Source: a virus
Lineage: Duplodnaviria; Heunggongvirae; Uroviricota; Caudoviricetes
Length of the DNA: 21,738 nucleotides
IMG/VR virus record: IMGVR_UViG_2537561977_000011
Direction: 5' to 3' (one strand)
The notes beneath the pieces are model-generated. The model did not search any database and was not told where the DNA came from. It saw only the letters and a list, made by a program, of their open reading frames with translations. Below, piece after piece: positions 14,195-15,420 of the stretch. A program made the position numbers and the translations under genes. How positions within the stretch are numbered: the first letter of the stretch is position 1; every line of letters starts with the position of its first letter.

Positions 14195-15420
14195 TTACGC
14201 AGCGGCTTTCTGGCGGGTTGCAGCCCCAATTTTCATCAGCTTAATCGCCTGAGAATCCACCAGCATACCGCCGGTTCGCTTGGTGGTATAAAAACCCACG
14301 AACGGTTTGTTGGTGTACGGGTCACGCAGGATACGGGTACCGATGCGATCAACGATGGTATAGCCGCGTTTGAAGTTACCAAACGCAATGGCTTTTGCAT
14401 CGGCGGCAATATCCGGCATCTGCTCATTCTCAACGATGCCATACCCTGCCAGAGAAGAAGGCTGACCCAGCTCAATACCCGGACGCCACAAATAATTTCC
14501 GTCGTTATCCTTCAGCAGACGAATGGCAAACAGGCTGCTGTTGTTCATCATGAACTTCGCGCCGCTGCGGTGCGCCTTACGCAAGGTGTAAATCAGTTTA
14601 ATGATCGCATCAGCGGTCACGCCGGAAGCCGCGCCGGAAGCAATGTGCTGAAGTTTGCCAAACGCACGGGTCTTGTCATCTTCATCGGTGGACTCATAAG
14701 CCAGAAAACCTTTTGGTTTTTGCTACCGTCGCCACTGGTAAAGGCAATTTCTTCCTGTTCGGCAAATTCCAGCGCCAGCTCACTGTTGATCCAGTCTTCC
14801 ACATTAAAGAAAGCATCATCGAGCATTTTCTGTGTGGCCTGCGGGTTGCCGTAGATTTCCCCCATAAAGGGCTCAATCAGTCCCAGTTTTGAGGTGGCGG
14901 TTTCCGGACGCGCTTCCGTTTCCCCCACCCATCCGGACGTCGTGCCGCCCAGATTCACCAGTTTTTTATAATCCGAGCCACCCAGAGTGATTACGGTGGC
15001 CTCCTGGCGCATCACCACTTCATCTTTCAGCAACGTCAGAATGGTGCGATCCAGTTCTTCCGGAATGGCATAACCACCATCTTCATCATTACCCACCTGC
15101 AGTGCCTTTCGCTCAAGCTCACGCAGGCCATCTTCACGCCCCTTGCGCATAAAACCGATAAACGCTTCTTTATGTTCCCCGGCAACTTTATTTTGCGTAC
15201 CACCTGCCGGACGCTTAACTTCAGCCAGCTCAGCCTCAAGATCGCTTTTGAGATTTTCCAGTTCAGTCAGTTTTCCGTTGAGGGTTTCCACTTCTCCGGC
15301 AAGTTTTCCCTTTTCCTGCTCAATCGCATCCACGCGCTTGTCGTTCTTTGCTTTGAAGTCGTCAAACTTCTGCTGCAGCTCCTGCGCGACCTGTTCGACA
15401 TCTTTAATATCAACCGCCAT
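14195..15420 (-). pseudogene. major capsid protein, HK97 family, split into two ORFs (14617..15420 and 14195..14620) by an apparent 1-nt deletion in an A-run near 14711..14721
   Basis: N-terminal ORF has a coiled-coil delta-domain-like start (MAVDIKDVEQVAQELQQKFDDFKAKNDKRVDAIEQEKGKLAGEVETLNGKL...) and ends in out-of-frame residues; the downstream frame opens at 14722 and reads ...KGFLAYESTDEDDKTRAFGKLQHIASGAASGVTADAIIKLIYTLRKAHRSGAKFMMNN..., a continuous capsid sequence. Confidence 0.85.

Follow-up and report, generated by a model that had tools for sequence, protein, structure and literature searches.

The split major capsid gene in the draft sequence of a phiP27-like prophage of Escherichia coli LT-68 is very probably a homopolymer undercall

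The window (the whole stretch of DNA that was analysed, 21,738 nucleotides in length) corresponds to the full length of contig ADUP01000036.1 from E. coli LT-68 (GCA_000188815.2), a strain that is among the ETEC strains of PMC4038620. It represents the late region of a phiP27-like prophage, with 95% DNA identity to phiP27 over 72% of the window, and its genes follow the order HNH, small and large terminase, portal, S78 prohead protease, capsid, connector and Mu-like contractile tail. The capsid gene is accompanied by the rest of the head module, including the portal gene at 17367..18608. The features at and around the capsid gene are listed here.

14195..15420, minus strand: whole major capsid gene, which with one A restored encodes 408 amino acids, 100% identical to WP_038341736.1
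14617..15420, minus strand: ORF 1, 267 amino acids (EFZ58386.1), consisting of capsid residues 1–235 and an out-of-frame tail
14195..14722, minus strand: second frame, encoding the C-terminal 173 capsid residues, with its stop at 14197..14195
14723..14725, minus strand: TAG that closes the second frame, directly upstream of the junction; when read in the correct frame these bases belong to GGT AGC (Gly-Ser)
14717..14721, minus strand: A5 homopolymer, the site of the missing base; A6 in relatives and in another assembly of the same clone (L060, described below)
16889..17389, minus strand: prohead protease gene (Peptidase_S78 in Pfam; 16889..17425 as counted in the head module), shortened by an insertion sequence

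ORF 1 (15420..14617) contains ...FTSGDGSKNQKVFWLMS... and ends with a stop at 14619..14617. Around the junction it reads ...EQEEIAFTSGDGSKNQKVFWLMS..., with the stop 34 codons further on, and the out-of-frame tail is 32 residues long, NQKVFWLMSPPMKMTRPVRLANFSTLLPARLPA. The second frame starts at 14722 with QKPKGFLAYESTDEDDKTRAFGKLQH..., in agreement with the initial annotation, which had this frame opening immediately after the TAG at 14725..14723. In the deposited annotation the second frame is represented only from an internal GTG at 14620, giving the 141-residue protein EFZ58385.1.

Both pieces match the Pfam family PF05065 (Phage_capsid), for which the cut-off is 24.2 bits. Residues 115–237 of ORF 1 align to profile positions 1–123 (E = 3e-30, 105.9 bits) and residues 2–165 of the second frame align to positions 123–280 (E = 3.5e-45, 155 bits); the intact homologue spans positions 1–280 with 273.6 bits. 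The two matches adjoin at position 123 of the 280, and we therefore conclude that they are a single domain cut in two, rather than two chance ORFs. In sequence alignments, the intact homologue matches PDB entries 6tb9 and 6tba with an E value of 3e-73 and 9gyi with 1.6e-52, and the alignment is unbroken across the junction, through SGDGSKKPKGFL. The PDB chains are deposited as HK97-family major capsid protein, and together with the abutting PF05065 matches they bear out the earlier description of this locus as an HK97-type major capsid gene divided between two ORFs. It is one such gene, cut within its fold by a one-base frame change.

The tract AAAAACCAAAAGG occupies 14721..14709 and begins with the A5 run (14721..14717). 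Among complete genomes, that of E. coli FDAARGOS_944 is the nearest, with 99.9% identity. Both FDAARGOS_944 and STEC316 read AGC AAAAAA CCA, where the six bases form the codons AAA AAA for K235 and K236, and alignment with these two genomes gives only one indel within the capsid gene, a single missing A (A5 vs A6). Alignment to an intact capsid, suggested earlier as a check and run here with the nearest relatives, thus places the junction at the A-run 14721..14717, which is indeed one base short as had been proposed. Restoring the A gives ...GDGSKKPKGFLAYE... and the 408-residue protein of WP_038341736.1. Two repairs had been put forward; the second, ...GSKKPKGFLAYE..., matches the relatives, and the other does not.

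The homologues encode the capsid as a single ORF, and do not end naturally where ORF 1 ends. This is the case for phiP27 L40 (1224 nt), SfII gp06 (1206 nt), FDAARGOS_944 (408 amino acids), STEC316 and L060, and the sequence GDG(S/T)KKPKGF is encoded in one frame in phiP27 L40, SfII gp06, FDAARGOS_944 and 15 of 15 metagenome contigs. The run is A6 in phiP27, the same two lysines are encoded by AAGAAG in SfII, and one further contig, NZ_CANMAO010000022.1 (L033), has AAAAAG. Among the complete E. coli genomes with this stretch (best 40 of 82), no match to the A5 allele at 99% identity or above was found, and the extra base is spanned in all of these best 40. A six-base run is present at the junction in all 15 metagenome contigs and in the only GTDB genome contig that was matched.

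Some of the sequences retrieved are of interest in their own right. L033 is a 68-kb contig of a marine-symbiont MAG, labelled ‘Uncultured Endozoicomonas sp.’, and could be either a related prophage or enterobacterial contamination. A 576-residue ORF (protein P0037; L039 273..2003, GCA_903995765.1) contains both Peptidase_S78 and Phage_capsid domains and occurs on 7 contigs under the name ‘phage major capsid protein [Shigella flexneri]’; it looks like a fusion of protease and capsid in the remnant of a related prophage. The RefSeq phage label ‘major head protein’, which occurs twice, was considered as a natural split and rejected, because it refers to a mislabelled prohead protease beside a single capsid ORF; the mislabelled genes are 651 nt long (phiP27 P27p39, L034 4077..4727, and SfII_05, L035 1432..2082). 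Finally, a 93%-identical capsid gene in Logan SRR32899962 (L007, around 5784) has a different one-base deletion, of the C equivalent to window 14837. This deletion also yields ORFs of 267 and 141 amino acids, so these two lengths by themselves do not identify the A-run lesion.

A separate assembly of the same prophage was found in contig DAEAOT010000099.1 of GCA_018229165.1 (here L060), which was retrieved by means of a lineage-specific 469-residue protein containing four copies of a 9-bp repeat. The ends of L060 coincide closely with two insertion sequences in the window.

15597..16893, minus strand: ISEc60-like element of the IS4 family, inserted in the prohead protease gene at its 3' end, with the 12-bp direct repeat GGGGAAATCCCC on either side
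889..1656: IS1 in the tail-fibre region, with the 9-bp direct repeat CCTGTATCG on either side; L060 stops at the edge of this element

The ISEc60-like element lies just upstream of the capsid gene and encodes a 413-residue DDE transposase (ORF 15619..16860). L060 starts 5 nt from its edge and ends 3 nt from the edge of IS1, and the ISEc60 lesion is real because an independent contig starts at its edge. We note that FDAARGOS_944 has the same insertion sequence at other sites of the same prophage, in the portal and sheath genes. L060 and the window also share the fourfold repeat and a C deletion at 10369, which is not in a homopolymer. The repeat (TTACCTTCT, 7340..7375, in gene 5972..7381) is in-frame near the 5' end of the DNA-circularisation gene and was used as a lineage marker: it is present four times in the window and in L060, and twice in every other relative in which it was detected. 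Because the same two insertion edges occur in both, L060 is taken to be the same clone as the window; its source would be LT-68 itself or a near-identical sibling, and we refer to it as the same clone throughout.

Comparison of L060 with the window over 15592..1659 gave no substitutions in 13,934 nt. The sole differences are four A/T runs, 6–8 bases long in L060 and each one base shorter in the window.

14721: A5 in the window, A6 in L060; capsid run
10677: T6 in the window, T7 in L060; tail tube gene
7972: T6 in the window, T7 in L060; intergenic, after the tape-measure gene
4946: A7 in the window, A8 in L060; end of the baseplate gene 4899..5975

The base that the deposited sequence lacks is thus found in another assembly of this clone, where the capsid lesion is not reproduced and the capsid is an intact 408-residue ORF, 100% identical to the FDAARGOS_944 protein. 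It follows that the split is almost certainly a sequencing error. Four homopolymer changes in one direction, with no substitutions in 13.9 kb, are implausible as biological divergence and are as expected from systematic undercalling. From the mutation rates in E. coli mutation-accumulation studies, four slippages without one substitution are very unlikely, even in a mismatch-repair mutator.

Shortened runs were also found in a sister draft, ADUU01000034.1 (L048), which otherwise differs from the complete genomes by 1–3 substitutions over some 9 kb. Its counterpart of the run at 7972 is T6, vs T7 in five complete genomes that are otherwise 1–2 substitutions away (five and not six, because the stretch is absent from L051), and at the A6 site of an IS1 copy it has A5, vs A6 in six complete genomes. 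This draft family therefore shortens homopolymers, and does so at specific sites. The reference loci for the A6 and T7 runs came from a look-up of the sheath protein, which gave 4015 blocks, mostly from Shigella. The run at 7972 is T6 in both the window and ADUU01000034.1, and T7 in L060 as well as in those complete genomes that have the site; on this comparison we regard it as a site-specific recurrent undercall. As for 4946, A7 is also the allele of complete Shigella sonnei genomes, where it gives a protein of 358 amino acids instead of 351; the A7 of the LT-68 clone, with A8 in L060, is an undercall, in a run that appears to be genuinely variable in another lineage. Compared with FDAARGOS_944, the window shows about 9 substitutions and 6 single-base deletions, and five of the six deletions are in A/T runs, with the window always the shorter and the frequency rising with run length. 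Such a pattern is compatible both with homopolymer undercalling and with slippage in a prophage that is decaying.

Other genes of the prophage contain lesions of both kinds. The tail tube gene has two one-base deletions, at 10369 (the C outside a homopolymer) and at 10677 (T6). The deletion at 10369 is common to L060 and is therefore real, giving a tube protein of 135 instead of 118 amino acids, and the T6 at 10677 is T7 in L060 and is therefore an undercall. The large terminase gene, TerL, is also split:

20559..20137 and 20106..18802, minus strand: ORFs of the split TerL gene, with the lesion region at 20120..20190

At 20181 the window has A4, vs A5 in five relatives, which is probably another undercall. 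In a nearby G-run the window reads GGGGGCG and FDAARGOS_944 reads GGGGGGC (described by PGAP as ‘frameshifted’), vs GGGGGC in the intact relatives, suggesting that this +1 change is probably real and common to LT-68 and FDAARGOS_944. The broken tail-tube ORF (124 amino acids) and the N-terminal ORF of TerL (140 amino acids) gave matches only to LT-68 and SRR040460, or to LT-68 alone. Taken together, the ISEc60 insertion in the protease gene, the C deletion in the tail tube gene and, probably, the +1 change in TerL point to a prophage that is defective for other, real reasons.

The A5 allele was found in a small number of other sequences. Logan assemblies of three read sets give it as their majority call: SRR040460, which is identical to the window and breaks at the insertion sequence; SRR354113, which is identical to the window except that the protease gene is uninterrupted, with an empty insertion site; and SRR060017, which has 5 SNPs in 4 kb relative to the window. 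Outside the 2010–2011 read sets, and among the sequences examined, A5 occurs only in three prophage copies from two assemblies rich in other homopolymer indels (L008, L009, L011). It is present on two haplotypes, each of which has an A6 twin that is otherwise identical: L005 and its twin L038 have zero other differences over 3.75 kb, and L014 and its twin L013 have zero over 2.2 kb. This fits a recurrent miscall and not descent. We had considered A5 in the three read sets as an inherited real lesion, and dropped this in view of the two haplotypes with A6 twins, the shortening in the sister draft, and the A6 in L060. If any of the three read sets proved to be Illumina, A5 would be real there.

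We consider it highly probable that the capsid split is a homopolymer undercall in the LT-68 draft, and not a biological feature. On this explanation, an A6 in the intact 408-residue HK97-type capsid gene of a phiP27-like prophage would have been called as A5, and the call would shift the frame and produce the two annotated fragments of 267 and 141 amino acids, with no biological mechanism acting at the run. The cause would be systematic homopolymer undercalling by the sequencing chemistry of the 2010 draft, which we take to be 454 pyrosequencing; the platform was not found in the literature on the LT-68 accession, the strain or its sister strains. The initial annotation had left a choice between a homopolymer miscall and a loss-of-function lesion, and the A6 and intact 408-residue capsid in L060 decide for the miscall. 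A real deletion by replication slippage in A6, making the capsid gene a true pseudogene of a decaying prophage, is unlikely. It would cost nothing in a prophage that is already defective (the protease insertion, the tail-tube frameshift and the probable TerL frameshift); a second assembler also arrives at A5 from three read sets, two of them from genomes unlike LT-68 (one with no insertion in the protease gene, the other with 5 SNPs); and homopolymer alleles in this prophage can be real, as shown by A7 at 4946 in S. sonnei. However, L060 shares the insertion sites, the repeat number and the C deletion with the window, has no substitutions in 13.9 kb, and has A6. Moreover, such a lesion would need separate origins on two haplotypes whose twins are otherwise identical, it is not inherited with the haplotype in related genomes, and A5 is absent from all the high-quality sequences examined. 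There is a very small chance that the A6 run is truly hypermutable and has been hit independently in several decaying phiP27-like prophages, as recurrent real inactivation of the capsid; this would take in the LT-68 lineage, the SRR060017 haplotype and the prophages of GCA_974493425.1 and GCA_974496755.1, possibly with leaky frameshifting at A_AAG restoring a little full-length protein.

Two further explanations are, in our view, extremely improbable. One is that the run acts as a slipped-strand contingency tract, switching between A5 and A6 in populations of the clone, so that both assemblies are right. Both forms are indeed reported for what is apparently a single clone, and A5 recurs on another haplotype. 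Yet the same two assemblies also disagree, with the same direction of change, at three unrelated A/T runs (one of which is intergenic), and this suggests a property of the data and not of the capsid site. The run does not vary among the complete genomes (best 40 of 82) or the 15 metagenome contigs, and six A's are short for a contingency tract. The other is that the frames are joined during expression, by programmed −1 ribosomal frameshifting (for example by tRNA-Lys at CAA AAG G) or through transcriptional slippage in the A-run. That full-length capsid is still made in this way, perhaps under regulation, is just as hard to credit. The shift needed is −1, the frame overlap (14722..14620) contains A_AAG, a tetranucleotide that permits low-level −1 slippage in E. 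coli, and a slip there would give GDGSKNQKGFL, with the same length as the intact protein. However, no X XXY YYZ heptamer is present in the zero frame AGC AAA AAC CAA AAG GTT, where the candidate heptamers read C AAA AAC C and C CAA AAG G, neither of which has this form. No stable RNA structure was predicted in the downstream 93 nt, which have a minimum free energy of −20.5 kcal/mol; shuffled sequences averaged −25.6 (z = +1.48), and 189 out of 200 were equally or more stable. A5 is too short for efficient transcriptional slippage. Every homologue examined has one frame, except for the A5 copies and other frameshifted copies, and L060, from the same clone, has A6. The single frame is kept even where the run is interrupted (AAGAAG in SfII, AAAAAG in L033), which implies that there is no selection for a two-frame arrangement. 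With the split not conserved, programmed frameshifting is in effect refuted.

There is, then, no new biology at the capsid split. EFZ58386.1 and EFZ58385.1 each represent half of an ordinary capsid protein, and are not to be taken for a pseudogene, a split gene or a recoding site. The value of the result lies in quality control only: the contig has at least three further one-base shortfalls, at 10677, 7972 and 4946, and probably a fourth at 20181. Frameshifts in A/T runs in LT-68 or its sister ADU* drafts should be compared with another assembly before they are interpreted.

The closest known system is phiP27 (Stx2e-converting, NC_003356), whose capsid protein L40 (P27p40), with its orthologue WP_038341736.1, is encoded within a head-tail gene order that the LT-68 prophage shares. 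Unlike phiP27 L40, the window has A5 for A6 and two annotated fragments; and unlike phiP27, the LT-68 prophage has its protease gene interrupted by ISEc60 and contains an IS1 within the tail region. The capsid of the Rhodobacter capsulatus gene transfer agent (6tb9, 6tba) gives a continuous alignment over residues 80–400 (E = 3e-73), which includes the motif F-x-SGDG-x-x-KP-x-GFL spanning the junction. It is a distant alphaproteobacterial homologue, and serves only to place the junction inside one fold. The LT-68 differences resemble the homopolymer undercalls of draft assemblies, in that they affect only A/T runs of 5–8 bases, are always one base short, and are commoner in longer runs. Like known undercalls, errors of the LT-68 type are seen again at the same site in a sister draft, and a separate assembly is free of them.
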